A DNA stretch of 64,000 nt from Anaerolineae bacterium. GTDB lineage: Bacteria > Chloroflexota > Anaerolineae > B4-G1. Made by a program: the position numbers and the translations under genes. Under the pieces are notes generated by a model. It searched no databases. It was not told where the DNA came from and saw only the letters and a list, made by a program, of their open reading frames with translations. Shown here in pieces: positions 1 to 61,930 of the stretch (its first letter is position 1; every line of letters starts with the position of its first letter). Location of the stretch: contig JBHIET010000005.1 in NCBI GenBank assembly GCA_046760785.1, forward strand, positions 1,165-65,164, in the 5' to 3' direction.

Positions 1-1720
1 CGGGAGACCAGTTCAGGCCGATGTCATTGATGCTGGCAGTGAGGCGGCTTGGCGGTTGGTCATCGTCGGGATTGTCCACGAAGATTCCGCAGGCCCCGCT
101 CGTCTCACAACCGGTCCAGGCCAGCAAACCGGTGGGCCCCCACACTGGCCCTTGCCCCGCCGCGTGCACTCTCGGCTCGGCCGAGCCATCTGTCGGCGCG
201 ATGGTTATCTGCCAGGTGCCAGCCACGTCCTGCGCGGCGTAGGCGAAACGGTGCCCATCGGGTGAGAAGGTGGGCCAGCCCAGCCCGGCGCCAGCAGCCA
301 ATTGCTGTGGCGCGGCCTCTCCTGACACTCGCAGCGAGATGCCAGGCGAGAGCAGGTCGCGGTACCCCAGGGCCCCGCTGCCCCACAGCCAGCAGGGCTG
401 ATCGGCCCCACTGGCCATCTGCACCAGGCGTGCGTCGGTGGAGAGGACGTACACGTCGTAGAGGCCGGTCTGCGTATTGTAGGCCGGATAGGCCAGCCGT
501 CCCACGTTGAAACCCGGTGGCAGTTCGGTCAGCGTGATGGTCTGCGTACCTTCTATGGGCGGGATGGGAGTCGGTGTGGCAACCAGGCAGACCTGGGCCG
601 CTTCGGCCCGCTTCTGCTCGACTTCGGGATCGTTCATCAGTTGCAGAGCGAGCGCATATTGCTCTTCGGCCGGGCACATCTCCTCCTGAACATACCAGGC
701 CTCGGCATAGGTTATGTGGGCGCGATAGAGTCGCTGGAAGACGTCCTTGTAATTGGGCGCAATGGCATAGATCTGCTCGAAGCGCTCGATGCAGCGCTCC
801 CAATCCACCCCCCAATAGCCCAACGCAGTCATGTACTGTATAGCCAGGCTGCGCTGAGTCAGCGCTCCCTCGTCCAGTGGGCGCAAGGCCACTGCCTGGT
901 CAAGGTAGAAAATGCCCTCTTCGAAACGGTCCTTTCCCAGCAGCGCCATCCCCGCGTTGTAGAGGCTGGTGAAGAGCATCTCCTCGACCGTCTCTGCCTC
1001 GTAGGCCGGATCCAATGCCCGCAGTTGGGTGAGCACAGCGGCCGCCTCTCTCCACTCCTCGGCCTCGTAGTGGGCTACGGCTTCCTGGTATAGATCGCCC
1101 ACGACGATCTCGTAGGTCTCCGTGGTGGGGGTGGGACGGGCGGCGATGCGTGTCTGTGCTTCGGCAATGCCTTGTTGAGCCAAGGGATGTTCGGGGTTGA
1201 TTCTAAGTACTCGCTCAAACTCAGCGATGGCGAGTTCGTACTCGCCGACCTCAAGGTGCTCCACCCCGGCGTGGTAGCACTCAGTGGCTGCTTCGGCGAT
1301 GCGTTGTTGGGCTAAGGGATGGTCGGGATCGAGTTCGAGTACGTATTCGAGCTCGGCGATGGCGAGTTCGTACTCGCCGGCCTCGAGCCGCTCCAATCCA
1401 GCACGATAGTGCTGCTCAGCCAATTGCTGGCGCTGCTGTTCTCGGTCGCGTTCTCCCTGGTAGAGGCCGCCATAGGCCGCCCCTCCCAGGATTAGCGCTA
1501 GAAGGCAAAAGCAGCCTATCGCCCAGAGAAGAATCCGGCGCAGGCTTTGCCAGCCTGTGAGTGCTTCTGAGTCCGGCGTGGGTGTCGTCGCTACAACAGA
1601 GGCAGCCCGCTTAGATCGCCGCCGGGCGCGCATGGGGCGCGTTTTCTCCACGTCCGTGCCGCATTGTGGGCAGAGAAGCAGATCGTCGGGGACTTCGGCT
1701 TTACACTCGGGACAGCGCAT
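1..1720 (-). CDS. Zn-ribbon / single-TM / TPR-repeat / PD40 (TolB-like) protein; C-terminus lies beyond the window edge
   Basis: ATG at 1718-1720 gives MRCPECKAEVPDDLLLCPQCG. This is followed by the hydrophobic segment ILLWAIGCFCLLALILGG and tandem TPR-like units (GEYELAIAE..L..P.HPLAQQ). Near the edge comes WPTFSPDGHRFAY, a PD40-type motif. The frame stays open to position 2, so the gene is absent from the closed-ORF track. Confidence 0.6.
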   Translation of the reverse strand, partial: MRCPECKAEVPDDLLLCPQCGTDVEKTRPMRARRRSKRAASVVATTPTPDSEALTGWQSLRRILLWAIGCFCLLALILGGAAYGGLYQGERDREQQRQQLAEQHYRAGLERLEAGEYELAIAELEYVLELDPDHPLAQQRIAEAATECYHAGVEHLEVGEYELAIAEFERVLRINPEHPLAQQGIAEAQTRIAARPTPTTETYEIVVGDLYQEAVAHYEAEEWREAAAVLTQLRALDPAYEAETVEEMLFTSLYNAGMALLGKDRFEEGIFYLDQAVALRPLDEGALTQRSLAIQYMTALGYWGVDWERCIERFEQIYAIAPNYKDVFQRLYRAHITYAEAWYVQEEMCPAEEQYALALQLMNDPEVEQKRAEAAQVCLVATPTPIPPIEGTQTITLTELPPGFNVGRLAYPAYNTQTGLYDVYVLSTDARLVQMASGADQPCWLWGSGALGYRDLLSPGISLRVSGEAAPQQLAAGAGLGWPTFSPDGHRFAYAAQDVAGTWQITIAPTDGSAEPRVHAAGQGPVWGPTGLLAWTGCETSGACGIFVDNPDDDQPPSRLTASINDIGLNWSP

Positions 1721-3381: not shown

Positions 3382-4449
3382 TTACAAGATGCCCACCTGG
3401 CTGTGATCGCCCAACGTCAGTTTGTACGCTTTTGGCTTGATGGGGGAGCGGGTCAGGGTGACATTCCGGCCAATGACGCTATCCTGGATGCGGGCCGGGA
3501 TGCCGTGGATCAGGCTGTGCTCCAGGACGATGGCCCGCTCAATCTCGCTATCCTCAATCACGACGTCGTGGTAGATTGAGGTGAACGGGCCGATATAGGA
3601 ATTGACAATGCGGGTGCGTTCGCCGATGATGGCTGGGCCGCGGATGACACTGTTGACGATCTCCGCCCCCTGCTGGACGGTGACGCGGCCATCCACCTCC
3701 GAGTCACGGTCCACGTATCCCTCGATCTGCGGCGTCAGTTCCTCCAACACCAGGCCGTTGGCCTCCAGAAGATCCTCTCTCTTGCCCGTGTCAATCCACC
3801 AGCCCCGATGGACGTAGGGGTAGACCCGGTAATCGTGCTCCACCAGCCATTGGATGGCGTCAGTGATCTCCAACTCGCCTCGCCAGGAGGGGGTGATGCT
3901 CTCCACCGCCTCGTGGATGTGGTGGTCGAACATGTAGATGCCGACCAGCGCCAAATCAGAAGCCGGCACCTTCGGCTTCTCGACTAGCCGCACGATACGC
4001 CCAGCCTCGTCCAGTTCAGCCACGCCGTACAGTTCCGGATGCGACACCCGAGTGAGGACAATCTGGCTGTTCCAGTCGCTTTCAGTGAACTGTTCGATCA
4101 GTCCCGAGATGCCTCCCTGGATGACGTTGTCGCCCAGGAACATCACGAAACGTTCGTCGCCCAAAAAGCCCTGGCTTACCTTGACGGCGTGAGCCAACCC
4201 CAGGGGATTTTGCTGGTGGATGTAGGTGATCTCGATACCCCAGCGCCCGCCTCGCCCGACGGCAGTCTTGATGTCTTCGGCAGTGCTCCCGACGACGATG
4301 CCGATATCGCTGATGCCAGCGTCACGGATGGCCTCGATGACGCGGAAGAGGACGGGCTTGTTGGCGACAGGGATGAGTTGCTTGGCGCTGGTATAGGTCA
4401 GGGGGTAGAGACGGGTACCTTTGCCCCCGCTGAGGACCAGTCCTTTCAT
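3382..4449 (-). CDS. Glucose-1-phosphate thymidylyltransferase-like sugar nucleotidyltransferase (long form with C-terminal left-handed beta-helix)
   Basis: N-terminus MKGLVLSGGKGTRLYPLTYTSAKQLIPVANKP. The C-terminal half shows hexapeptide-repeat character. Confidence 0.8.
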   Translation of the reverse strand: MKGLVLSGGKGTRLYPLTYTSAKQLIPVANKPVLFRVIEAIRDAGISDIGIVVGSTAEDIKTAVGRGGRWGIEITYIHQQNPLGLAHAVKVSQGFLGDERFVMFLGDNVIQGGISGLIEQFTESDWNSQIVLTRVSHPELYGVAELDEAGRIVRLVEKPKVPASDLALVGIYMFDHHIHEAVESITPSWRGELEITDAIQWLVEHDYRVYPYVHRGWWIDTGKREDLLEANGLVLEELTPQIEGYVDRDSEVDGRVTVQQGAEIVNSVIRGPAIIGERTRIVNSYIGPFTSIYHDVVIEDSEIERAIVLEHSLIHGIPARIQDSVIGRNVTLTRSPIKPKAYKLTLGDHSQVGIL

Positions 4450-12774: not shown

Positions 12775-13647
12775 CTAGACGAGTTCCGCCCGCAGCGCCT
12801 CTATTTGCTCCGGTCGTAGCTTTCCCAGCGGTTGCTGTACCAGCGGCCCGGCCTCCAGCGGAAGGACCTGCTCCTCGTAGGTCGGGAGCGGCTTGTCCCG
12901 GTAGACGATGCCGATGGGGATGCGCTCTCCCCACTCCTGCGCCCTGACCCAGGCCGTCGTTCGATCCCGAGGGTCGTACCCTTCTTCATCCTCCAGCTTG
13001 TAGACCCGTTCCCTGTAGAAGTCATAAGCGCTGGCCCGGTTAAAGGTGACGCAGGGCTGGAGCACGTCCACCAGGGCGTACCCTGGATGCTGTAACGCCT
13101 CGCCGATGAGCCAGACCAGGTGACGCAACTCGCCCGCATAGCCCCGGGCTACAAAGGTGGCTCCGGCAGCGATGGCTAGTGACAGCGGCTGCACTGGCCT
13201 GTCAATAGCCCCTTCCGGCGAAGTAGGCGTGCGCATGCCTGGCTCGCTGGTGGGGGAGTACTGGCCCTTCGTCAGACCGTAGACCCGGTTGTCCTGTACG
13301 ACGTCCACCAGATCAATGTTGCGCCGAATGGCGTGCAGCCAGTGGCCCAACCCCATGCCATATCCGTCACCGTCGCCGTGGACAGTCATAATCTTGAGGC
13401 TATGGTTGGCCAGCCTGGCCCCGGTGGCCACTGCCAATGCCCGACCGTGAATGGTGTGAAAACCATTGACCTTCATATAGTGTGGTAATTTGCTCCCGCA
13501 GCCGATGCCGGTGAACACAACCACTTCGTGAGGCGCGATGTTCTGCTCAGCCAGGGCCATTTTGATCGCGTTCAAAATGCCATAGTTGCCGCATCCCTTG
13601 CACCAGGTAGGCCGCTTGGGGTTGTCGAAGTCCCTTCTCGTAAGCAT
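12775..13647 (-). CDS. korB: 2-oxoacid:ferredoxin oxidoreductase beta subunit (TPP-binding)
   Basis: WCKGCGNYG, TGIGCGSK and HGDGDGYGMG are TPP/Fe-S motifs of the KorB family. Confidence 0.85.
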   Translation of the reverse strand: MLTRRDFDNPKRPTWCKGCGNYGILNAIKMALAEQNIAPHEVVVFTGIGCGSKLPHYMKVNGFHTIHGRALAVATGARLANHSLKIMTVHGDGDGYGMGLGHWLHAIRRNIDLVDVVQDNRVYGLTKGQYSPTSEPGMRTPTSPEGAIDRPVQPLSLAIAAGATFVARGYAGELRHLVWLIGEALQHPGYALVDVLQPCVTFNRASAYDFYRERVYKLEDEEGYDPRDRTTAWVRAQEWGERIPIGIVYRDKPLPTYEEQVLPLEAGPLVQQPLGKLRPEQIEALRAELV

Positions 13648-13649
13648 CT

Positions 13650-15470
13650 CTACGCCTCCGTTTGAGTTTCGGGTTTCGAGTTAACCTGCAACTCGCAACT
13701 CATGACGTATTCTGGAGTAAAAGCACGGCCATCATACCTGAGGATGATTTCATCCACCGCCCGGCCGGTCTTGGCCCGGATGAGCGTCGCCAGTTGGGCG
13801 GTGGCGTTTCCTTCCACACCGACGAGCCGCCTGGCTGGCTTCAGGGCCGCCGTCACCGCCTCTGTCGGGAAGGGCCACAGGTCCACAAAATGCAGGAGGT
13901 TGGCTCGACCTGTCCTGAGCGAAGTCGAAGGTGCCGCTCGCCCCGCGTTCAGCCGATCCACCGCCTCCCGCAGTGGGCCGTAGGTGGAGCCCCAGCAGAC
14001 GAAAGTGACCTCCACATTATCAGGCCCGTACCGTGTGGGGCCGGACATCTCCCCGACCATGCCGGTCAGCTTGCGCTGCCGTTTCTCCGTCTGGGCCGTG
14101 CGCATCTCCGCTTCTTCGGTGATCGCCCCGCTCTCGTCGTGCTCGTTTCCGGCAGCGACGTAGACCGCATTGGGATGTCCGGGCAGCGCCCGTGGCGAGA
14201 CACCCGAACTTGTCCTGAGCCCTGTCGAAGAGTCTGTGATACGATAGCGCAGGTACTTCCCTTCCAGCGCATCCAACTCCGCTGCGCTCAACAGCGCTCC
14301 CCGGTCAATCTCCACCGCCTCGAAGTCAAAGGCATCGAGTTCCAGCGTGCGCACTGCCACGGCCAGGTAGTGGTCGCTGAGCACCAGGGCCGGCGTCTGG
14401 TACTTTTCTGCCAGGTTGAAGGCGCGCCAGCCGGCCGTGAAGCATTCCTCGTGAGTGCCGGGGGCCAACAGGAAGCGGGGAAACTCTCCCTGCGAAGCGT
14501 GAAGCATAAAGAGCATATCCCCCTGCTCTTGGCGCGTGGGCAAACCGGTAGAAGGCCCCGGTCGTTGGGCATTATAGATGACGACCGGCGTCTCCGTCAT
14601 TCCGGCCAGCCCCAGCGCCTCCACCATCAGTGCAAATCCCCCACCTGAGGTCGGCACCAGCGCCCGCGCTCCCACGTGAGCGGCTCCGATGGCCATGTTA
14701 ATCGCCGCGATCTCGTCCTCGGTATGTTTGGTCACCACGCCATAACGGGCCGCGTGGGCCGCCATCCAGTGCAGCACCGGTGACCCTGGCGTCATCGGGT
14801 AGCCGGCCACGAAGCGACAGCCCCCCGCCAGCGCCCCCAGGGAGAACGCCTGAGTGCCATTGACCACCATCCGGGGTGGCGCGTCTGGTATCATCTTCAG
14901 CTTGAAGGGGAAATCGGCAGCGTACACTCTCCCTTCCCGATAACCGGCCTCTGCGGCTGCCAGGTTGCCGTCCACCATTGTCTGGCCCTTGCGGGCAAAG
15001 TTCTGGCGGATGACGCTCTCCATAGGCTCCAGGGCGAAGCCGGTCATCCCTGCCGCGACGCCCAACGCCACGGTGTTGCGCGCCAACACGGTCCCGGCCT
15101 TCTCTTTGGCGATGTCGCTCAGGGGTATGCCCAGATAGCGAACGGCGTCTCCCGGTGGCTGCTCCGCCGGCACCTGGGTTGAGTCATAGACGATAACTCC
15201 TCCCTTGACAATCTTGTCCCGATGGCGCGGGATCGTCTCTTCGGTCAGCGCCAGCAACAGGTGCACCGGCTCCGTGTGGGAGTAGAGCGGCCGGTCGCTC
15301 ACGCGGATGGAGAAGAAGTTGTGCCCGCCCCGGATACGCGAGTAATAGTCGGGCAGGCCAAAAATGTGCAACCCACCCCGGGCCAGCGCCTTGCAGAACC
15401 CGGCGCCGCTGGACTCCACCCCGTCGCCCGCCGCCCCGCCGATCCTGATGGTCATCTCGTTGGTTGTCAT
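13650..15470 (-). CDS. korA: 2-oxoacid:ferredoxin oxidoreductase alpha subunit (fused gamma-alpha type)
   Basis: N-terminus IRIGGAAGDGVESSG, 606 aa, 2 nt upstream of korB. Confidence 0.85.
   Translation of the reverse strand: MTTNEMTIRIGGAAGDGVESSGAGFCKALARGGLHIFGLPDYYSRIRGGHNFFSIRVSDRPLYSHTEPVHLLLALTEETIPRHRDKIVKGGVIVYDSTQVPAEQPPGDAVRYLGIPLSDIAKEKAGTVLARNTVALGVAAGMTGFALEPMESVIRQNFARKGQTMVDGNLAAAEAGYREGRVYAADFPFKLKMIPDAPPRMVVNGTQAFSLGALAGGCRFVAGYPMTPGSPVLHWMAAHAARYGVVTKHTEDEIAAINMAIGAAHVGARALVPTSGGGFALMVEALGLAGMTETPVVIYNAQRPGPSTGLPTRQEQGDMLFMLHASQGEFPRFLLAPGTHEECFTAGWRAFNLAEKYQTPALVLSDHYLAVAVRTLELDAFDFEAVEIDRGALLSAAELDALEGKYLRYRITDSSTGLRTSSGVSPRALPGHPNAVYVAAGNEHDESGAITEEAEMRTAQTEKRQRKLTGMVGEMSGPTRYGPDNVEVTFVCWGSTYGPLREAVDRLNAGRAAPSTSLRTGRANLLHFVDLWPFPTEAVTAALKPARRLVGVEGNATAQLATLIRAKTGRAVDEIILRYDGRAFTPEYVMSCELQVNSKPETQTEA
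13904..13932. repeat. Short palindromic element (GTCCTGAGC...GTCGAAGG type) in frame inside korA
   Basis: ctcgacctgtcctgagcgaagtcgaaggt encodes ..APSTSLRTGR.. in the korA frame. Confidence 0.6.
14205..14231. repeat. Second copy of the same palindromic element in frame inside korA
   Basis: cgaacttgtcctgagccctgtcgaaga encodes SSTGLRTSS, interrupting the conserved ..TD-GVSPRALPG block. Confidence 0.6.
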
Positions 15471-20573: not shown

Positions 20574-21818
20574 TCACGCTTCGCGTAACAATGCTTCCAG
20601 GTCAAAGTCATCATCCATTAGCCGAGCGGCATGAACCGAGACGCCCACGCCCCGCTCGATCAATAGGGTGACAGGGCGCACCCGCTCTCTGTCGTTGAGC
20701 AGGATCGCGCCCACGATGCGTCCCTCGTGCAGCACGAACTTGCGGTAGTGTCCGGTTGCCAGGTCCACGTGCCGTAACGATGTGTAGCTGTCCTCCTCTG
20801 TCAGGCATTCCCCCAGCGAGGTTAACTCCGCCCCGGCGACTTTGAGCGTGGTGGCGGGGAGCGTGCCGGTGTAAGTGGCACTGCCGGGCGCGACCATGTT
20901 CGCCGCGGCGACCGTAGCCTGCTCGATGGCGGGCGGGATGATCCCATAGACCCGCCCTTCGAATTCGGCGGCGTCACCCGCGGCGAAGACGTCCTCCGCG
21001 CTCGTCTGCAACTGGTCATCAACGACGATGCCACGGTTCACTTCGAGCCCCGCTGTCTGGGCCAGTTCGACTTCACTGCGGATGCCGGTTGAGAAAAGTA
21101 CCAGCTCTCCGGCCACCACGCGCCCATCCCTTCGACTATGCTCAGGGCGAGCCTTAAGCCGGATGGCCTCAGCACGCCCGTTGCCCAGGATGGCCTCCGT
21201 CGCTGCGCTGGTGATGATTTGCAACCCTTGCGCCTCCAGCAGCGATTGCAGAACCTCAGCACCTTCGGCGTCCATCTGGCGCGGCAACAGGTGGGGGGCG
21301 AACTCGACCACGGTCACGTCCAGACCGGCGGCATGGAGCGCCCGCGCCGTCTCCAGCCCCAACAGCCCCCCGCCGATGACCACCGCCGTAGAGACCTCCT
21401 GAGCGTGCTGTTTGATCGCCAGAGCATCATCCAGGGTACGCAACGAAAAAACGCCCTCCTTGTCCGCTCCCTCGCAAGGGGGCACAAAAGGGCGTGCGCC
21501 TGTGGCGAGCAGAAGGCAGTCGTATTCCACCTGGGAGCCGTCGGCCAAGGCGAGGCGGTGGGCTGTGGGATCGAGCGAGATGGCCCGGACGCCCAGGTGC
21601 AGGTGGATGCCACGCTCAGCATACCAGGCTGGCGGTCGAAAGTAGAGCGCGTCTTGTTCGATCTGGCCAGCGATGAACTCCCACAGGAGGGGGCGGCGGT
21701 AGTAGGGATAAGGCTCGACGCCGAAGACGTGCACCTCGGCGCTCGGGTCGGCCCGGACGATTGCTTGAGCTGCTGTCACACCAGCGACGCCGCTGCCCAC
21801 GATAACGTGTCGCCTCAT
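20574..21818 (-). CDS. FAD/NAD(P)H-dependent oxidoreductase (NADH:rubredoxin oxidoreductase-like)
   Basis: Dinucleotide folds VIVGSGVAGVTAA and VVIGGGLLGLETA. Genomic context with rubredoxin and the flavodiiron protein supports the call. Confidence 0.75.
   Translation of the reverse strand: MRRHVIVGSGVAGVTAAQAIVRADPSAEVHVFGVEPYPYYRRPLLWEFIAGQIEQDALYFRPPAWYAERGIHLHLGVRAISLDPTAHRLALADGSQVEYDCLLLATGARPFVPPCEGADKEGVFSLRTLDDALAIKQHAQEVSTAVVIGGGLLGLETARALHAAGLDVTVVEFAPHLLPRQMDAEGAEVLQSLLEAQGLQIITSAATEAILGNGRAEAIRLKARPEHSRRDGRVVAGELVLFSTGIRSEVELAQTAGLEVNRGIVVDDQLQTSAEDVFAAGDAAEFEGRVYGIIPPAIEQATVAAANMVAPGSATYTGTLPATTLKVAGAELTSLGECLTEEDSYTSLRHVDLATGHYRKFVLHEGRIVGAILLNDRERVRPVTLLIERGVGVSVHAARLMDDDFDLEALLREA
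21129..21147. repeat. Palindromic element copy in frame inside the NROR-like gene
   Basis: ccttcgactatgctcaggg (reverse orientation) encodes ..ARPEHSRRD... Confidence 0.5.
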
Positions 21819-24376: not shown

Positions 24377-24401
24377 ATACTTGGCATTCTGTTCTGCCAC
24401 C

Positions 24402-24443
24402 AGCATAGCAGAAAGTGGGTCGTCTGTCTACGACAAAAGTCAC
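24402..24443 (-). promoter_or_regulatory. Conserved ~42-bp promoter-like module, copy A (TAGACA-17-TATGCT)
   Basis: The minus strand gtgacttttgtcgtagacagacgacccactttctgctatgct is about 85% identical to 25773-25814. Confidence 0.45.
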
Positions 24444-24494
24444 ATCGTGTTGGCTGTACCTTGGCCTGCAGTTGCTCACAGCCAGAGGTGCACC

Positions 24495-24531: not shown

Positions 24532-25197
24532 ATGGAAACCACTGTCCAGGCCCTGCACCGCGTCTCCCTCTTCGCCGGCCTCTCCGACGACGCGCTGACC
24601 CGCGTCGCCGGTGCGGCCATGCGCCGCACCTATGCTCCGGGCCAGATGGTCATCTTCGAGGGCGACCCCTGTCAGGCGGCTTACTTCATCGCTGAGGGGC
24701 AGGTGCGTGTCTATCGCCTCTCCCCTGCTGGCCGCGAGCAGGTACTGGTGCGGCTGGGGCCGGGCCAGACTTTCAACACGGTGCCCCCCTTTCAACCCCA
24801 CGGCGTCAATCACGCCACCGTCGGGGCCCTCACTGAGGTCACCCTTTACGCCATCGCCAGCGACGACTTCCGCCGCCTGGTGGGCGAGTGTGCCGAGCTG
24901 GCGCTGGCCATTCTGCAGGACTTCGCCGCCCGGCTCGACCATCTGACCAACCTGGTGGAGGACCTTTCACTGCGCACGGTGCGAGGGCGGCTGGCCCATT
25001 TTTTGCTGGAGTACGCCGATGCGGATACGGTGACCCGGCGCTGGACGCAGGAGGAGATCGCCGCCCACCTGGGAACGGTGCGGGACATGGTGGGGCGCAC
25101 GCTGCGGGCCTTCACCGACGCGGGGCTGGTGCGGGTGGAGCGGCAGCGCATCGTGTTGCTCGACCGGGAGGGGCTGGAGGCCGAGGCGCAGTGCTGA
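24532..25197 (+). CDS. Crp/Fnr family transcriptional regulator
   Basis: A cNMP-binding-like N-terminal domain and a C-terminal HTH (EEIAAHLGTVRDMVGRTLRAF). Confidence 0.8.
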   Translation: METTVQALHRVSLFAGLSDDALTRVAGAAMRRTYAPGQMVIFEGDPCQAAYFIAEGQVRVYRLSPAGREQVLVRLGPGQTFNTVPPFQPHGVNHATVGALTEVTLYAIASDDFRRLVGECAELALAILQDFAARLDHLTNLVEDLSLRTVRGRLAHFLLEYADADTVTRRWTQEEIAAHLGTVRDMVGRTLRAFTDAGLVRVERQRIVLLDREGLEAEAQC

Positions 25198-25642: not shown

Positions 25643-25724
25643 TCCTGAGTAGGCCGAAGGCCGTATCGAAGGGGCGATTTAGCGGCCCGTCGCCCTTCGA
25701 TACGCCGCTTCGCGGCACTCAGGA
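25643..25724. repeat. Intergenic composite palindromic repeat (two inverted TCCTGAG...TCGAAGG units)
   Basis: tcctgagtaggccgaaggccgtatcgaagg ... ccttcgatacgccgcttcgcggcactcagga. It is flanked by an imperfect 19-nt inverted repeat (25578-25596 / 25753-25771, 15 of 19 positions). Confidence 0.55.
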
Positions 25725-25772
25725 CGACTGGCCTGATTTAGCTGCTAGCGGAGTGCGAAATCTAGGCTAAGT

Positions 25773-25814
25773 GCGACTTTTGTCGTAGACAGGTGACCGC
25801 CTTTCTGCTACACT
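25773..25814 (+). promoter_or_regulatory. Conserved ~42-bp promoter-like module, copy B (TAGACA-17-TACACT)
   Basis: gcgacttttgtcgtagacaggtgaccgcctttctgctacact lies immediately upstream of the second ferredoxin gene. Confidence 0.45.
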
Positions 25815-25838
25815 GTGGTGGAAAGGCGGTCACTTTAT

Positions 25839-31633: not shown

Positions 31634-32842
31634 CTACGGTTTGCTTGGCTTATCTGGTTTCTCTGGGTGCTCCGGATGCTCGGGATGTTCCGGGTGCTCT
31701 GGATGTTCCGGCGTCCTGGTTTGGCCAGGTGGCTGCGGTGTCTTGGTTCGACCAGGCGGCTCTGGCGTCTTGGTCAGGCCCGGTGGTTGTGGCGTCCTGG
31801 TTTGGCCGGGTGGTTGTGGCGTCCTGGTCCGGCCGGGCGGCTCTGGCACACTGGTAGTGGGAGTCGCGGTCGGCGTTGAGGTAGGAACAGCCGTGTTCGC
31901 CGTAGTTGGAGTGGTGAGGGCGGGGCGGCCAGGGAGAGGGGGGTGCTCGGGCTGGACTGTGGTTTCTTGTCCGGCCAGCAGTGCAACGGTGGTCTCCTGA
32001 GCCATCACGTTGACCACTCCCTCGACCACCACCACGCGGGTGGTGCCATCAGTTTTCACGGTCAGGGCAAATTCCGTTCCGCGCACCGCCATGACCGCCG
32101 TGGGGGTCTCGATCTCGAAGCGAGAGGCCTGATCAGGCAGAGGCCGCACGCGGCTATAAGTCTGGCCCGACGTTTGACGGAGGAGGATGACCTTGCCGCT
32201 GCCATCCCGCGGGCAACTCATCTGGATGACGGCGACCTCCGTCTCGGCCTCCAGATCGGTTGTGCTTCCATCGAAGAAGATCAGCGTGGCGGTGGAAAGC
32301 TGACTGGTGCGGACTCTGTCTCCTGCGTCTACCCGCTCGCCAGCCGACGTCGGCTGCCAGGCGTCGCTGCCGGCGGGCAGGACTTCTACGACACCCTTCA
32401 CCTGGCCCAGGGTAGCTGCTTGGGTGACGGTCGGCCTGAGCCAGGACGCGAGAAACACACTGGCGAGGGCGAGCAGGACGAGTGCCGTCGCGGCCGCCAG
32501 GGCCAGTTGGAAGGCAGGCACGCGCCTCCGCGCAGAGGGTCTCTCTTCCCTGGCGAACAGAGCAGCGACCCACTCTCCATAGCGGCGAAGCGGGCTGGGA
32601 GACACCGCCCGTTGGCGTTTTTTCTGGGTCAGCGTCTCCAGCATCCTCTGTTTCCCGGCGGCGAAGGCGGCAGGGCTGGAAGCTGGCAAGGGCACGTGAG
32701 ATACTTTGAGGGCGGTCTCCAGGAGGGGGCGCAGATCGCCAGCGTACTCCGGGTAGCGGGCCAGGCAGTCCTCCAGAGTGGCCTGATGTGCCCCCAGGAG
32801 AGCCAGGCTTTCATCTAAGGTCTCACGCAGATTCTGCTTCAT
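31634..32842 (-). CDS. Anti-sigma factor-like membrane protein with FecR domain and Pro-rich repeat tail
   Basis: N-terminus MKQNLRETLDESL...CLARYPEY, one TM segment (AAATALVLLALASVFLA), a FecR-like beta region, and a C-terminal (PPGxTxTPx)x5 plus (EHP)x5. Confidence 0.65.
   Translation of the reverse strand: MKQNLRETLDESLALLGAHQATLEDCLARYPEYAGDLRPLLETALKVSHVPLPASSPAAFAAGKQRMLETLTQKKRQRAVSPSPLRRYGEWVAALFAREERPSARRRVPAFQLALAAATALVLLALASVFLASWLRPTVTQAATLGQVKGVVEVLPAGSDAWQPTSAGERVDAGDRVRTSQLSTATLIFFDGSTTDLEAETEVAVIQMSCPRDGSGKVILLRQTSGQTYSRVRPLPDQASRFEIETPTAVMAVRGTEFALTVKTDGTTRVVVVEGVVNVMAQETTVALLAGQETTVQPEHPPLPGRPALTTPTTANTAVPTSTPTATPTTSVPEPPGRTRTPQPPGQTRTPQPPGLTKTPEPPGRTKTPQPPGQTRTPEHPEHPEHPEHPEHPEKPDKPSKP
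31637..31850. repeat. Coding tandem repeats (27-nt x5 and 9-nt x5)
   Basis: They encode PPGRTRTPQ PPGQTRTPQ PPGLTKTPE PPGRTKTPQ PPGQTRTPE followed by HPEHPEHPEHPEHPEKPDKPSKP. Confidence 0.8.
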
Positions 32843-49554: not shown

Positions 49555-49628
49555 GGGCGGTTAGCTCAGTTGGTCAGAGCGCCTCCCTTACAAGGAGGAG
49601 GTCACAGGTTCGAGTCCCGTACCGCCCA
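49555..49628 (+). tRNA. tRNA-Val (anticodon TAC)
   Basis: Acceptor stem GGGCGGT/ACCGCCC, D-arm tagctcagttggtcagagc, anticodon stem-loop cctcc-cttacaa-ggagg, and T-arm caggttcgagtcccg. CCA is not encoded. Confidence 0.9.
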
Positions 49629-49890: not shown

Positions 49891-50247
49891 ATGATAGATG
49901 TTCGTGGGTTGTTGGCAGAGAGGGCGGAGCATCGTGCCCTGCTGACGGAGGAGGCGGAGCGCATCGCGATCCAGTTGCGGGAACTGGGAGCACGTAAGGT
50001 TGTTCTCTTCGGCTCCGCCGCCCGCGGAGAGGCCAACGTCCACAGCGACCTGGACTTCGTCGTTGTGATGCCGGGCGAGCAAGGCTTTGCTTACTGGTCT
50101 CGCCGGTTGTACGGCGAAATTGATCGGCGGGTGGCAGTGGATTTCCTGCCTTACAACGAGCGGGAGTTTGCCGAGGCTCAGCGTCACAGCCGCCTGGTCC
50201 GCCACGCCCTGCGCACGGGGAAGGTTCTCTATGAGAAACCCAGTTGA
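49891..50247 (+). CDS. Nucleotidyltransferase (MNT) domain protein, antitoxin-like
   Basis: VVLFGSAARGEANVHSDLDFVVVM. Confidence 0.75.
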   Translation: MIDVRGLLAERAEHRALLTEEAERIAIQLRELGARKVVLFGSAARGEANVHSDLDFVVVMPGEQGFAYWSRRLYGEIDRRVAVDFLPYNEREFAEAQRHSRLVRHALRTGKVLYEKPS

Positions 50248-50584
50248 TGAAGCGCACCGCTGGCTGATCCATGCTCAGGACGAATATCAAGATGCTGAAG
50301 ACCTGAGAGAGCGCGGTCGTTTCTACCTGGCTCTCTTTCACTTTCAACAGGCGGCCGAGAAGGCATTGAAAGCCTTTCTTTACGCCCATACCGACGACCG
50401 CCGCGTCTTTTTCACCCATTCCGTTCTAGAGTTGGTTCAGGCTGCCGCTGCTCTTGACTCCACCTTGGCTGATCTGGGGAAGGCTAGTCGCCTGGATCAG
50501 TACTATATCCTTACCCGCTACCCAAACGGTCTCCCAGGGGGAGTGCCGTCCCGTTTCTATACCGATCCTGAGGAGGCTGCCTAG
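50231..50584 (+). CDS. HEPN domain protein, toxin-like
   Basis: MRNPVDEAHRWLIHAQDEY...AAEKALKAFL...RVFFTHS (Rx4H). It overlaps the MNT gene by 17 nt. Confidence 0.75.
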   Translation: MRNPVDEAHRWLIHAQDEYQDAEDLRERGRFYLALFHFQQAAEKALKAFLYAHTDDRRVFFTHSVLELVQAAAALDSTLADLGKASRLDQYYILTRYPNGLPGGVPSRFYTDPEEAA

Positions 50585-51150: not shown

Positions 51151-52485
51151 ATGCCCTATATCCCTCACAAAGATGCTGACCGGAAAGCGATGCTCGCTGC
51201 TATCGGCGTACGGTCCATCGAGGAATTGTTCGAGGACGTGCCACAGCAGGCCCGCTTCCCGGAACTAGATCTGCCGTCCGCCCTCTCGGAAATGGAGGCC
51301 CGCTGGGAACTGGAGATGCTGGCCGAGGCCAACCTCACCACCGCCGACGGGCCCTGCTTCCTGGGGGCCGGGGCCTATCGTCACTTTGTCCCCGCTGTGG
51401 TGGACGCTTTCCTGCGCCGGGGGGAGTTCTACACCGCCTACACCCCCTATCAGCCGGAGATCAGCCAGGGCACGCTGCAGGCCATCTTCGAGTACCAGAC
51501 GATGATCTGCAGCCTCACTGGCATGGAGGTTTCCAACGCCTCTCACTACGATGGCGCTACTGCTACCGCTGAGGCGGTCATCACTGCCATCAACGTCCAC
51601 CGCCTGAAGCGGCACAAGGTGATCGTCTCCCCTTGGGTCCACCCTGAGTACCGGGCCGTGGTGCGCACCTACACCCAGGGAATGGGGTTGACGGTGGTGG
51701 AGAACAGCGGACCAGCAGGATTAGCAGATTTTCTTGATGGCGACACAGCCTGCGTCATTGTCCAGTATCCCGACTTTCTGGGCCGCATCGAGGATTTGAG
51801 CGACCTGGTTGAGGCGGCGCACGCGGTCGGCGCGCTCGTGGTCGTCGTGGCCGACCCCATTGCCCTGGGGCTGCTGAAGCCCCCCGGCGAGTTCGGGGCG
51901 GACATCGTGGTGGGGGAGGGGCAGGGGATGGGCGCCGGACTCAACTTCGGTGGGCCATACCTGGGCTTCTTCGCCACCCGGATGAAGTACGTGCGCAAGA
52001 TGGCCGGCCGGCTGGTGGGCCAGACGGTGGACACCGAGGGAAACAGGGGTTTCGTTCTCACCCTCTCCACCCGCGAGCAGCACATTCGCCGGGAGCGGGC
52101 CAGCTCCAATATCTGCACCAACCAGGGGCTGGTGGCGCTGGCGGCGGCGATCTACATGGCCGCCCTGGGTCGCTGTGGGATGCGTCGGGTGGCGGAGTTG
52201 TGTTACCACAAAGCTCACTACGCGCAAGAGCGGATTACGGAAATCAACGGATTCTCTGCGCTTGACGACAAGCCGTTCTTCAAGGAGTTCGCTGTGCGCT
52301 GTCCACGCCCCGTGGCTGAGATCAACGACTATCTGCTGGACGAGTGGGGCATCATCGGCGGCTACGATTTAGGGAGAGACTATCCCCATCTGAAGGATCA
52401 CGTGCTCCTGTGCGTGACGGAGATGAATCCGCGGGAGGAGATTGACGCGCTGGTTGAGGCGCTGGGGAAGGCGCCTTCAGGCTGA
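51151..52485 (+). CDS. gcvPA: Glycine dehydrogenase (decarboxylating) subunit 1
   Basis: MPYIPHKDADRKAMLAAIGV...YTPYQPEISQGTLQAIFEYQT. Confidence 0.9.
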   Translation: MPYIPHKDADRKAMLAAIGVRSIEELFEDVPQQARFPELDLPSALSEMEARWELEMLAEANLTTADGPCFLGAGAYRHFVPAVVDAFLRRGEFYTAYTPYQPEISQGTLQAIFEYQTMICSLTGMEVSNASHYDGATATAEAVITAINVHRLKRHKVIVSPWVHPEYRAVVRTYTQGMGLTVVENSGPAGLADFLDGDTACVIVQYPDFLGRIEDLSDLVEAAHAVGALVVVVADPIALGLLKPPGEFGADIVVGEGQGMGAGLNFGGPYLGFFATRMKYVRKMAGRLVGQTVDTEGNRGFVLTLSTREQHIRRERASSNICTNQGLVALAAAIYMAALGRCGMRRVAELCYHKAHYAQERITEINGFSALDDKPFFKEFAVRCPRPVAEINDYLLDEWGIIGGYDLGRDYPHLKDHVLLCVTEMNPREEIDALVEALGKAPSG

Positions 52486-52593
52486 ACAAGGAGGTGATGT
52501 TGCCGGGGAAGATGATACGCAGTCACAAGGAGAGGGAGGAGCCGGGCAAGCAGCCGTCAGTGTGCCAAGAATCAAAGAAACAGGAGGATATGC

Positions 52594-53884
52594 AATGTAC
52601 AAGAGAGAGTATGTAACCAGTAAATGCGTGTTGGCTCTTGCCCTGGCCGCACTGGCACTGGTTGGGGCCCTGGTGCTGATAGCGGCGATGAGAGGAACGC
52701 AGTCTATGGCCTACGCGGAACCACTGCGTACCGTCTCCGACGCGCCGGTTATGAGTATCCCACAGTGTATATCTCCCACGGGGGTGAGTATCGCCTCTGA
52801 TAGTCCTGTTCCTTGTGGAGTGCCGATGCACTTCACTGCCACCGTCACTCCCTCCAACGTGACCTCGCCCACCTACGCCTGGGACTTTGGCGGGGCGGGG
52901 AGCGGCAGTGGGACGGACACCGCCACTCCGATCTACATCTACGCGGCACAGGGCAACTACACTGTCGCCGTCACCGTCACCGGCGACTGTGGCGACCCCG
53001 TGGCCGCCACCCTTCCTGTCACTGTTGAGAAGGCGTACGTCTATCTTCCCTTGGCGGCTCGGAACTATGGCCCCGGGCGCTACGCTGTAGTTGTCGGCAT
53101 AGCCGATTATCCCGGCTCAGCCAACGACCTGAACTACACAGACGATGACGCCGAGGACTTTCGCCAGATGCTCCTGGATCGAGGCGACTTTACGGCGGAC
53201 AACATCAACTTGCTACTGGATAGCCAGGCCACTGAGTCCAATATTTACAATGCCATTACTGATTGGTTGGATGCCCGCGAAGATGCTAACGACTTGGTCA
53301 TATTCTTCTTCAGCGGCCACGGGGGGCAAATGCTGGACTATGGCGGGGACGAGAGCGATGGCTATGACGAGTACCTCTTCCCCTACGGTTACAGCGCCAC
53401 TATTACAGATGACGAATTGGATATATGGCTGGACACGCTGGAGTCAGACCAGGTAGTCGTGCTGGTGGATGCCTGCTACAGCGGGGGGCTCATCGGTGCA
53501 ACGCCGTTAGAGGCATCGTTGGAGGGCGCTCGCTGCAAATGCCTGCCACCGCTGGGTGGTGTGGGGGGTAGCGTGATGGTGGGAGATGGCTTTGCCAAAG
53601 ATGTAAACCAGAGCGGGCGCTTGGTGCTAACCGCCAGCCAGGAGGATCAAGTGAGCTGGGAGTTCGGCACCCCCATCGAGCACGGTGCTTTCGCTTACTA
53701 TCTGCTGGAGGCGTTGGCAGCAGCCTCTGCCGACAACAACAGCAACAGTTGGATCTCTGGCGAGGAGGCCTATGACCACCTGGACGGGCGCGTGGACTCC
53801 CTGGTATTCAGTGTGGTCGGACAGCACCAGAACCCACAAGAGAGCGATGGCATTGACGGAGAGGTGGATTTGACGCGACCGTAA
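52594..53884 (+). CDS. Membrane-anchored PKD domain / peptidase C14 (caspase-like) protein
   Basis: N-terminal TM segment, a PKD-like block (FTATVTPSNVTSPTYAWDFGG...GNYTVAVTVTG), and the caspase His/Cys dyad motifs FFFSGHGG and LVDACYSGG. An RBS (aggagg) lies 7 nt upstream. Confidence 0.75.
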
Positions 53885-53954
53885 GTTTCGATAGACGGCG
53901 CAGTGCCCGCGAGTGGAATGTGTTGTCGCTGGAATTCAAACTGGAGGAACAACC

Positions 53955-55442
53955 GTGACAGAGCCTATCATCTATGAAATCTCCCGTCCCGGCCGCTGCG
54001 CCGCCGCGCTGCCGGACCCGGACGTGCCGCCTGCCGACCTGCCCGAGGGGTTGGTGCGGGACGATCTTCCCCTGCCAGAGATGAGCGAGCCAGACCTGGT
54101 GCGCCACTACACCCACCTTTCTCAAATGAACTACGGGGTGGACACCGGCTTCTACCCGCTCGGCTCCTGCACGATGAAGTACAACCCCAAGATCAACGAG
54201 GAGACGGCCCGCCTGCCGGGCTTTGCCCACCTCCACCCATACCAGGACGAGGAGACGGTCCAGGGGGCGCTCTTTCTGATGTATCAACTGCAGGAGTTCC
54301 TCAAGGAGATCGGTGGGTTCGCGGCGGTCAGTTTGCAGCCGGCGGCAGGCGCCCACGGGGAGTTGACCGGCGTGTTGATCATGCGGGCCTACCATCTGGA
54401 CCGGGGGGACGAGCAGCGAGACGTGATCCTGGTCCCGGATTCGGCCCACGGCACCAACCCGGCGAGCACGACGATGAGCGGCCTGCACGTGGTGGAGGTC
54501 CCCTCCGACGCACGGGGTAACGTAGACCTGACGGTGCTGAAGAAAGCCTGTGAGGAACACGGCGATCGCCTGGCTGGCATGATGCTGACCAATCCCAATA
54601 CCTTGGGGCTGTTTGACGAGCACATCGAGAAAATCGTCGAGTTAGTGCATGGCTGCGGCGGACTTCTCTTCGGCGATGGCGCGAATATGAACGCGCTGTT
54701 GGGCACATGCCGGCCAGGCGATCTGGGCTTCGACGTGATGATGTTCAACCTGCACAAGACCTTCAGCACGCCCCATGGCGGCGGCGGGCCAGGCGGAGGA
54801 GCAGTGGCTGTGGCGGAGCACCTGGTTGATTTCCTGCCCAATCCCATCGTGGCCGTGGACCCTGAGCGGTGTCCTGAGCTTGTCGAAGGACAGTCGGACG
54901 GCGAGGTGGCGTTCTACACGTTCGTGGATCCGCCCAAGTCCATCGGTCGGGTGAAGGCCTTCTACGGTCACTTCGGTGTGATGGTGCGGGCTTACACCTA
55001 CATCCGAATGCTGGGGCCGGATGGCCTGCGCAGGGTGGCGGAGTACGCGGTGCTCAACGCCAATTACCTGATGAGCCGGATCAGGGATGCCTATAAGGTT
55101 CCCTACGACCGCACCTGCATGCACGAGTTCGTCTGCGAAGGTCGCTTCCCTGATGCCCCCCACGTGCACGCGCTGGACATCTCCAAGCGGCTGATGGACT
55201 ACGGATTCCACCCGCCCACCAACTACTTCCCTCTCATCGTCCACGAGGCGCTGATGATCGAGCCGACGGAGACCGAGAGCCTTGAGACGCTGGATGCGTT
55301 CATCGCGGCCCTGTTGCGCATCGCCGAGGAGGCCCGCACGGATTCCGACCAGCTTCACAAAGCGCCCCACACCGCTCCTATGCACCGACTGGACGAAGTG
55401 CGGGCGGCCAAGCAGTTGATCCTGCGCTGGAAGCCGAAGTAG
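53955..55442 (+). CDS. gcvPB: Glycine dehydrogenase (decarboxylating) subunit 2
   Basis: [14 protein letters not shown], the PLP lysine in [16 protein letters not shown], and a GTG start after ggagg. Confidence 0.9.
54861..54891. repeat. Palindromic element copy in frame inside gcvPB
   Basis: cctgagcggtgtcctgagcttgtcgaaggac encodes ..[11 protein letters not shown]... Confidence 0.55.
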
Positions 55443-55530: not shown

Positions 55531-55633
55531 CTTGAGTAGGCCGCAGGCCGTATCGAAAGCAAGTTTTGGCAGCGTCAGTGCAGTTCTTGGTCTCGATACG
55601 CTTCGCTACTCGACCTGAAGGGCCTACTCGACC
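55531..55633. repeat. Intergenic composite palindromic repeat related to 25643-25724
   Basis: cttgagtaggccgcaggccgtatcgaaag ... ctcgatacgcttcgctactcga ... gggcctactcgacc. Confidence 0.5.
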
Positions 55634-61632: not shown

Positions 61633-61930
61633 ATAATCGCATATTGCTACGGCAGAGGTGCCCCAAAGCCCGGACGTGAGGGGCACAAAGGGGGAAGCCG
61701 GTCGAAGTCCGGCGCTGTCCCGCAACTGTAGGTTAGTCAGATAGTCAGGTGGTCAATTAGCCGAGTGATGCGGCTACAGGACTATCAGACCACGAGACTA
61801 TAAGATTAATAAGCCAGGGTACCCACCTCTGTCGGCGTACACAACAACCTTCGCGGAAAGGGGGTGGCGCATGAAGGGTACTCAAGCACAAATGGCCCTT
61901 CCCCAACCAACGTGAGGGGAAGGGCTTTTC
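61633..61930 (+). promoter_or_regulatory. Cobalamin (AdoCbl) riboswitch with terminator expression platform
   Basis: P1 pairs ggcagaggtg with cacctctgtc. The core reads gggaagccggtcgaagtccggcgctgtcccgcaactgta, the B12-box-like segment reads aagccagggtaccc, and a terminator (gcccttcccc-N11-ggggaagggc-tttt) lies at 61895-61930. Confidence 0.85.

Follow-up and report, generated by a model that had tools for sequence, protein, structure and literature searches.

Rickettsia palindromic elements (RPEs) measure 100-150 bp, and the copy found in PheT is absent from other alpha-proteobacteria (PMC1779305); RPEs end in CGTC (PMC3733652). Repetitive extragenic palindromes (REPs) insert in or next to palindromes and occasionally in genes (PMC3733652, PMC3116915), and REPs of the GTAG type have been recorded in Chloroflexi (PMC3733652). 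The small dispersed repeats (SDRs) of cyanobacteria are about 20-27 nt long, dispersed as well as in tandem, and suspected to be mobile although no enzyme is known for them (PMC2884548). The d(GCGNAGC) mini-hairpin is described as unusually stable, occurs at single-strand initiation sites and is said to escape standard thermodynamic models (PMC13037366). Here we describe a repeat unit of 24 nt in a 64-kb stretch of DNA from an Anaerolineae bacterium (Chloroflexota), where two copies lie in frame within a korA-like gene. We conclude that the two korA segments are most probably separate insertions, each of a single copy of a dispersed repeat, that have persisted in tolerant loops of the protein.

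Chemistry of the IS200/IS605 type leaves no target duplication, and REP families linked to REP-associated tyrosine transposases (RAYTs) are usually species- or genus-specific. Elhai and colleagues reportedly described, in 2008, eight SDR families of 21-27 nt, with nesting, in heterocyst-forming cyanobacteria.

Insertions of 24 nt in korA

The window is the whole 64-kb stretch (positions 1-64,000), and strands + and - are those of the window coordinates. Its korA-like gene (Table 1) encodes the alpha subunit, with a fused gamma domain, of a 2-oxoacid:ferredoxin oxidoreductase (OFOR), as indicated by Pfam families PF01558, PF01855 and PF17147, precomputed on an identical protein. The POR gamma-type, POR_N and PFOR_II domains, together with full-length likeness to solved alpha subunits (6N2N_A, the Magnetococcus KorA, E = 1.8e-83 over residues 4-590; 5B48_A, E = 1.3e-78) and an adjoining gene for a thiamine pyrophosphate (TPP)-binding beta subunit, identify the product as an OFOR alpha subunit. 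Its homologues are named '2-oxoglutarate ferredoxin oxidoreductase subunit alpha' or '2-oxoacid:acceptor oxidoreductase' in databases, and the 2-oxoglutarate specificity implied by the name korA is a matter of annotation only.

A sequence-only reading of this DNA had placed two in-frame copies of a short palindromic repeat in korA, and both sequences are present within the open reading frame (ORF) at the positions it quoted. At these copies the korA translation holds ...NAGRAAPSTSLRTGRANLL... and ...RITDSSTGLRTSSGVSPRALPGH...; the reading around them is AAPSTSLRTGR at the first, which we call site A, and DSSTGLRTSSG at the second, site B, where the peptide spanning the insert is DSSTGLRTSSGVSPR. 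Both units reside on the strand opposite to korA; they are single copies, oriented alike and separated by 300 nt.

To define the boundaries, we compared codon by codon the DNA of 67 related loci (labelled L), with orthologues of about 85% identity. Against empty orthologues, the insert at each site is exactly 24 nt, or eight codons, rather than the 27-30 nt given by the earlier reading. At site B every locus but two is empty and reads ATC ACS GAC | TCG GGN GTC, which makes more than 25 orthologous loci; the window and L003 carry (T/C)CTTCGACAGGGCTCAGGACAAG(T/C) there, exactly 24 nt extra. At site A the empty form is AAC GCR GAR CRR RCN GGY | CGG GCC; the window has CCTTCGACTTCGCTCAGGACAGGT inserted, 24-nt variants of which occur in L006 and L064, and exceeds the empty orthologues L001, L003, L004, L007, L009 and L025 by 24 nt. 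Both segments also fall in gaps against the solved homologues 6N2N_A, 5B48_A and 5B46_A, with a gap of 8 residues at site B against all three and of about 9 at site A against 6N2N_A. In the alignment, the site B copy splits the conserved block T-D/E | S-G-V/I-S-P-R, as had been proposed. With intact ORFs and conserved residues in register on both sides, the inserts are probably translated.

We also consulted the best 120 database matches to the protein (labelled P), which come from Anaerolineae and Chloroflexota and are 74-86% identical to it. They range from 573 to 626 residues in length, with a mode near 579, and the excess length is confined to a few sharply bounded places in the alignment. 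Ten of the 119 other homologues have site B filled, and these carriers occupy at least six separate places in a neighbour-joining tree; P0119 has a different insert there, of 17 residues. The closest relatives of the window KorA are empty at this site (for example P0003 and L001, at 86% identity). In all 11 carriers the boundaries, orientation and frame are identical, and the peptide is fairly well conserved.

Site A, filled in 25 of the 120 proteins and empty in 95, is more varied in content. Its fillings include the unit antisense to korA, of the PSTSLRTG type; the 24-nt unit in another frame, giving PFDAAHD, or PFDGAHGK in L002; the unit in the opposite orientation, giving LALSKVEG and HAPSGVEG; longer compound forms (GPSTLRQSSGQASLRTG); and unrelated short-repeat families (RPPSVPPTRGGEE, DYNGQGEFNGREG, LGLGRRPSPNS and GQGGLNGQ), several of them combined. 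Sporadic presence at both sites, with the gaps against three structures, bears out the proposal that the segments are lineage-specific insertions. Either site can be filled without the other, and the window copies are therefore separate events and not an internal duplication.

A third KorA loop, at about residues 101-109, is recurrently filled in the manner of site A. Sharply bounded hypervariable loops in P0001-P0120 lie at query residues ~101-109, ~380, ~402, 414 and 508-522, and their fillings by unrelated short repeats also include tandem RTGGFNG, DWGLGTGDWG and NQRISESANRRIA. The families of the oxidoreductase and of GcvPB, which host the other coding copies described below, have loops filled likewise in some homologues (PPMGGTEGG tandems, TLRPGSGQ, RVDGHP and RKRSEE).

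Comparing filled with empty sites at the DNA level, we found no consistent target-site duplication. In L006, the ends GCAGGC...ACAGGC are alike at 5 of 6 bases, a resemblance explained by the conserved AGGC with which the element itself ends; elsewhere no more than 1-3 of 6 bases agree.

Copies in the window and in other phyla

The unit, 24 nt in length, has the form GCCT-GTCCTGAGC-NNN-GTCGAAGG and the consensus GCCT-GTCCTGAGC-GAA-GTCGAAGG. The sequence-only reading held that its core recurs in other genes and between genes of the window, and we found it in an oxidoreductase ORF, in gcvPB and in two intergenic doublets (Table 1).

In the pyridine-nucleotide-disulphide oxidoreductase, the query and 4 of 119 close homologues have eight residues inserted into the native IRLK|DGRVV. 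In gcvPB the insert interrupts the native VDPER|SDDE; it is shared with 1 of 119 close homologues and lies inside a larger gapped stretch of roughly 14 columns against 1WYT_B. All four short copies in the window are thus eight-codon coding inserts, in two orientations and three reading frames. They encode three unrelated peptides, PSTSLRTG, ARPEHSRR and CPELVEGQ, which rules out a protein-level module. By direct translation five of the six frames of the consensus unit are open, only GC CTG TCC TGA being closed. Since the unit is 24 nt long and mostly open, its survival in frame needs no special explanation; the absence of a stop codon in the frame used, which the sequence-only reading had pointed out, is weak evidence.

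The flanks of the four coding sites (ctcg|tgcc, ccga|gtct, taag|gatg and gcgg|tcgg) share no target motif. Native DNA beside some filled sites resembles the element (window 54858-54869 and 14232-14242; L003 10521-10549). The DPER codons of gcvPB are GAC CCT GAG CGG, with TCGGACGG following the insert, and the empty site B of korA reads CCCGA|GTCGG on the element strand, which is element-like. On these few sites, there could be a preference for targets that resemble the element or form hairpin loops, of the kind seen with the nested copies of other phyla described below. Three of the four coding inserts (13908-13931, 14208-14231 and 21129-21152) begin at a codon boundary, if the 24-nt register seen across bacteria is the true unit; this may be an artefact, as protein-guided alignment places gaps with a bias toward that outcome.

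Table 1. Repeat copies, their host genes and other features of the 64-kb window.
Feature	Position	Strand	Details
korA-like gene	13650..15470	-	606 aa; host of two repeat copies; ORF and translation
korB-like beta subunit	12775..13647	-	directly downstream of korA; TPP_enzyme_C 7.5e-25, PFO_beta_C 2e-23; no repeat copy
Site A insert	13908..13931	unit on +, read on -	ACCT-GTCCTGAGC-GAA-GTCGAAGG; PSTSLRTG, KorA aa 514-521; exact consensus match
Site B insert	14208..14231	unit on +, read on -	ACTT-GTCCTGAGC-CCT-GTCGAAGA; SSTGLRTS, KorA aa 414-421
Third coding copy	21129..21152	-	GCTC-GCCCTGAGC-ATA-GTCGAAGG; ARPEHSRR in pyridine-nucleotide-disulphide oxidoreductase ORF 20574-21818 (-)
Fourth coding copy	54870..54893	+	24-nt insert TGTCCTGAGCTTGTCGAAGGACAG; CPELVEGQ in gcvPB 53913-55442 (+)
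Intergenic long variant	25644-25672	+	CCTGAGTAGGCCGAAGGCCGTATCGAAGG; DNA fold -8.1 kcal/mol, z = -1.7
Intergenic long variant	25694-25723	-	CCTGAGTGCCGCGAAGCGGCGTATCGAAGG; DNA fold -12.9 kcal/mol, z = -2.6
Intergenic long variant	55531-55559	+	CTTGAGTAGGCCGCAGGCCGTATCGAAAG; just after gcvPB stop; DNA fold -9.4 kcal/mol, z = -1.85
Diverged intergenic copy	55592-55613	-	CTCGATACGCTTCGCTACTCGA; identified by eye only
Direct repeat	1157-1409		two direct copies of a 121-nt segment, starts 132 nt apart, 77% identity
Inverted repeat	24401-24444 and 25772-25815		44 nt, 84% complementary
Crp/Fnr-type regulator gene	24532-25197		between the arms of the inverted repeat
Tandem repeat	31705-31847		27-nt period, at least 5 units, 73-84% identity; probably a 9-residue coding repeat
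tRNA gene	49555-49628		71.9 bits
HEPN-domain ORF	50087-50584
gcvPA	51151-52485
PKD/caspase ORF	52442-53884	+	PKD and caspase (Peptidase_C14) domains; between gcvPA and gcvPB
Cobalamin riboswitch	61639-61844		70.2 bits; followed at ~62215 by GTGGTGGGCG-type sequence

The number of copies in the window exceeds chance. The string GTCCTGAGC-N3-GTCGAAG occurs twice in korA against an expectation of 0.08 in the window; GTCCTGAGCNNNGTCGAAG, with up to 2 mismatches, has 3 window matches against 0.08 expected, a total attained in 0 of 100 shuffles; for the 23-nt consensus CCTGTCCTGAGCNNNGTCGAAGG, when up to 3 mismatches are allowed, there are 3 against 0.00. The loose pattern C[CT]TGAG-N(0-40)-TCGAA[GA]G yields 7 window matches, with 0.31 expected and a maximum of 2 in 200 shuffles. 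The 9-mer GTCCTGAGC alone is not over-represented in the window (23 against 24 expected, one mismatch allowed), and a lone GTCCTGAGC at 50273, in the HEPN ORF region, is probably there by chance. In all, the 64 kb hold 4 short and 4 long copies, where 0-0.3 are expected.

The intergenic copies form two inverted doublets, 25644-25723 and 55531-55613. Long variants keep the ends of the short unit, CCTGAG...TCGAAGG, and enclose a small hairpin with a GAA or GCA loop. Both of their stems show compensatory change, CCT/AGG to CTT/AAG in the outer and GGCC/GGCC to GCCGC/GCGGC in the inner stem. The tetranucleotides GTAG, CTAC, CGTC and GACG are found neither in the unit GCCTGTCCTGAGCGAAGTCGAAGG nor in its complement; GTAG does occur inside two long variants (GAGTAGGCC) and, on the complementary strand, in the diverged copy at 55592-55613. 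Scanned whole against Rfam at the gathering threshold, the window gave only the tRNA and the cobalamin riboswitch, and a permissive scan of the intergenic doublet only chance matches of the microRNA type. Readings of the loop as a hammerhead, K-turn or sarcin-ricin motif were set aside since the sequence does not fit them.

We then scanned one genome per species, 596 Gb on both strands, for GTCCTGAGCNNNGTCGAAGG, which returned at least 120 loci. Among the matches listed are Proteobacteria, Acidobacteriota, Bacteroidota, Verrucomicrobiota, Nitrospirota, Planctomycetota, Cyanobacteria (one Nostocales genome, L141), Patescibacteria, Chloroflexota and others, with cultured isolates among them. By our estimate, 17 fixed bases would be matched by chance about 70 times in 596 Gb, both strands counted, and some of the pan-bacterial matches are therefore probably chance, such as one in flagellin (L075). 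The surroundings of the fixed bases are nonetheless far from random. Across the 129 copies listed, from at least 120 species-representative genomes, 46 have GCCT upstream, 38 have GAA and 59 have G-N-A as the N3 loop, and in 96% a G or A follows immediately downstream. The stretch conserved among these matches spans 24 nt and keeps the register of the korA inserts. In the genome scan as in the window, then, the family is repeated beyond chance, as the sequence-only reading had supposed.

Copies are arranged in a tandem array with a 24-nt period in L076, and are nested within the loop of another copy in L100 and elsewhere inside copies of opposite orientation. Over all sequences compared, covarying stems enclose a constant loop GAGC-NNN-G(T)CGA, with 35 paired against 12.2 ± 3.1 in shuffled pairings (for example GTGCT/AGCAC, ATGTC/GACAT and ATTCT/AGAAT). 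Among the matches listed, 26% of copies lie in ORFs of at least 300 codons, against 62% of random positions, so most copies in other phyla are intergenic. In-gene copies listed there are found in LepA, GlyS, a GspE-type ATPase and ThiC. Compound or nested copies occur in the GspE-type ATPase of a Nitrospirae metagenome-assembled genome (L070, ~3700-3800), between its cysteine motifs, and inside LepA (L160, ~4620) and the glycyl-tRNA synthetase beta subunit (L151, ~600); the peptides that result include CPFDSAQDRPERSRRSE, ALRLSSGQAS and LSTLRQGSGQAS. On sequenced plasmids the element is rare, with 9 matching records by BLAST, whose annotation added no helpful context. For the DNA strings of the unit and the peptides derived from it, we found nothing relevant in the literature searched, which leaves subscription literature uncovered; a wider search by concept yielded general reviews and the main REP survey only.

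Several other features of the window stand apart from the repeat. The PKD/caspase ORF overlaps the end of gcvPA by ~40 nt and makes an unusual break in the gene pair of the glycine-cleavage P-protein. The 44-nt inverted repeat brackets the Crp/Fnr-type regulator gene together with an intergenic doublet, and could represent a pair of regions to which the regulator binds, or else the termini of a small mobile unit. Tandem and direct repeats, the tRNA gene and the riboswitch are listed in Table 1.

Origin of the inserts and competing explanations

What is established is a set of exact 24-nt insertions, sporadic among close relatives and lacking target duplication, of a family that is repeated in the window and across phyla. 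Insertion of this discrete 24-nt DNA sequence has occurred repeatedly and in both orientations. Tiny dispersed repeats that occupy genes while keeping the frame are already known, and we rate the 24-nt unit as a further example.

We propose that an insertion, being eight codons long and open in most frames, would add eight residues (PSTxLRTG/S in KorA) and leave the gene unbroken, and that copies would persist only in variable loops where the protein tolerates the extra length. The refilling of the same few KorA loops across lineages would follow from this survival only where tolerated, so that the hot spots probably reflect selection and not targeting. The element itself may act as a DNA hairpin, with a C-GNA-G triloop at the centre of the unit, and may spread as a hairpin of single-stranded DNA on which an enzyme of the host or of a mobile element acts in trans. 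By analogy, a REP-associated or IS200-like tyrosine transposase of the HUH class is a possible mobilising enzyme, which we put forward as a tentative first guess in view of the missing GTAG/CGTC tag, the failure to see a transposase and the near-identity across phyla.

Several observations weigh against this account. The repeat had been called palindromic, and while 3-5 terminal bases of the short unit do pair, nothing more does; its nearest-neighbour DNA fold of -0.3 kcal/mol is no better than that of shuffled sequences. Location in a surface loop, which the sequence-only reading had put forward as a test for both segments, is supported by the AlphaFold model for site A alone: there the insert lies between a helix (residues 497-509) and a strand (523-528), with a pLDDT below 50 at residues 513-518. 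The model has a mean pLDDT of 57.7 and falls below 50 over residues 199-452, and this poor region makes it impossible to place site B. No transposase or other mobilising gene was seen among the 18 window ORFs scanned against Pfam, which was not a systematic search. Near-identity of the 24-mer across phyla is odd for a RAYT-linked model. Lastly, the filling of site B at the same nucleotide in scattered lineages could equally fit one old insertion followed by precise losses, or recombination. At site B, recurrent gain and a single gain with many exact losses both fit, and we cannot decide between them.

The last of these points leads to the best-surviving alternative, that the insert at site B, and perhaps that at site A, is a single ancient vertical insertion, precisely lost or recombined since, of an element now immobile. 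This is compatible with the identical boundaries, orientation and frame of the 11 carriers, and with the inserts of the window and L003, which are identical at 22 of 24 positions against a gene-wide DNA identity of 0.83, as common descent allows. A sliding comparison of the window with L003 gave no local peak of identity around site B, a result that neither supports nor excludes recombination. However, with carriers scattered among empty close relatives, many exact 24-nt deletions would be required, and no flanking direct repeats are present to promote such precise loss. Site A, moreover, records many independent events, with different families, orientations and compounds, so that insertion is ongoing in the lineage. 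We regard a single ancient insertion as unlikely.

Rather less probable again is that the unit is mainly a structured RNA motif, a regulatory or processing hairpin whose in-gene copies act on mRNA stability, pausing or cleavage. The constant loop with covarying stems across phyla and the compensatory changes in both stems of the long variants count in its favour, and one long variant is positioned just 3' of the gcvPB stop, as are many REPs (PMC3733652). Yet Rfam offers no matching family, even when the E-value is permissive, and the coding copies occur in both orientations to transcription; the korA mRNA carries the complement, in which G.A pairs become U.C mismatches. A C-G-closed G-N-A triloop is a signature of DNA stability rather than of RNA, and the predicted fold of the short unit is weak, though calculated with DNA parameters only.

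It is highly improbable that the segments are selected functional loops of KorA, with a DNA likeness that is secondary, through internal duplication or convergence. The two copies do share a frame and encode similar peptides, PSTSLRTG and SSTGLRTS, and the site B peptide is fairly conserved among carriers; but the unit recurs in other genes, in other frames and with unrelated peptides, and in many phyla mostly outside long ORFs, while both segments are absent from most close KorA orthologues and either site is filled without the other. Chance similarity or an assembly artefact can practically be dismissed: some pan-bacterial matches are probably chance, with ~70 expected in 596 Gb, but the window counts are far above those of shuffles, the genome scan shows flanks and a loop that are not random, and the same inserts appear in independent assemblies from JGI, ENA and NCBI.

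Returning to the insertion of a mobile unit, a bolder version can be drawn, which we offer as speculative and would back somewhat less than the choice of enzyme above. The unit may be one of the smallest mobile DNA elements, present across most bacterial phyla and built around a hyper-stable mini-hairpin. It would insert without target duplication, often into hairpin loops or look-alikes, would be moved by a conserved enzyme or a replication-linked process and not by a lineage-specific RAYT, and would routinely remodel the surface loops of housekeeping enzymes in steps of eight residues.

On the preferred reading, a tiny repeat is remodelling the central-metabolism enzymes of uncultured Chloroflexota, eight residues at a time, and variation in the length and loops of 'conserved' enzymes between near relatives has a cause unrelated to function. 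PSTSLRTG, PELVEG and RPEHSRR in predicted proteins would flag repeat DNA. The recurrently filled KorA loops (near residues 101-109, 414 and 509-522) amount to a natural map of insertion-tolerant positions. Precise filled and empty sites, with what is apparently one unit in many phyla, make the spread of repeats of non-coding size testable.

Comparison with known repeat systems

The sequence-only reading took the repeat for a REP- or MITE-like element that has colonised coding sequence in frame. We retain the REP-like, in-frame part. Like MITEs (miniature inverted-repeat transposable elements), the unit belongs with non-autonomous, short, dispersed elements able to land in genes, but we rejected a MITE: it has neither terminal inverted repeats nor a target-site duplication, and it measures 24 nt against roughly 50-500 bp.

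In behaviour, the unit resembles RPEs, being dispersed between and inside genes, in frame, lineage-specific and tolerated in housekeeping enzymes. In-frame insertion absent from orthologues is seen at both korA sites, in gcvPB and in the oxidoreductase ORF, which is a likeness of behaviour and not of membership. Unlike RPEs, which are restricted to Rickettsiales and end in CGTC, the unit described here is 24 nt, carries no tag, and occurs in a Chloroflexota host and many other phyla.

With REPs and REPINs it may share the form of short, dispersed, hairpin-forming repeats; inverted doublets are made by the long variants only. The unit strings do not occur in the main REP survey (PMC3733652) or its supplementary files. 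In terms of a stem-loop, the short unit folds at -0.3 kcal/mol and the long variants at -8 to -13, with stems that covary across genomes. The short unit differs from REPs in having no GTAG or CGTC tag and a stem of 3-5 bp only, and in being near-identical across phyla. An extragenic majority, as the name REP implies, is not what the window presents, where 4 of 4 short copies are genic and the long variants lie between genes.

The centre of the unit, AGC-GAA-G(T)C, resembles the d(GCGNAGC) mini-hairpin as a G-N-A loop closed by C-G, and the loop is G-N-A in 59 of 129 copies among the matches listed. Only the T-less variant GAGCGAAGCGA holds the exact GCGAAGC heptamer. In the common form the extra T breaks up the second G-C pair, and by standard folding no stability is predicted; at korA site B the loop is CCT, so the feature is lost. 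As the mini-hairpin is said to escape thermodynamic models, its presence would explain why nothing is seen in nearest-neighbour folding of the short unit.

SDRs have been reported from cyanobacteria, whereas the unit here occurs in Chloroflexota and many other phyla. By description, the unit finds in SDRs its closest counterpart in size and organisation, with a length of 24 nt, a tandem array in L076 and nesting in L100.

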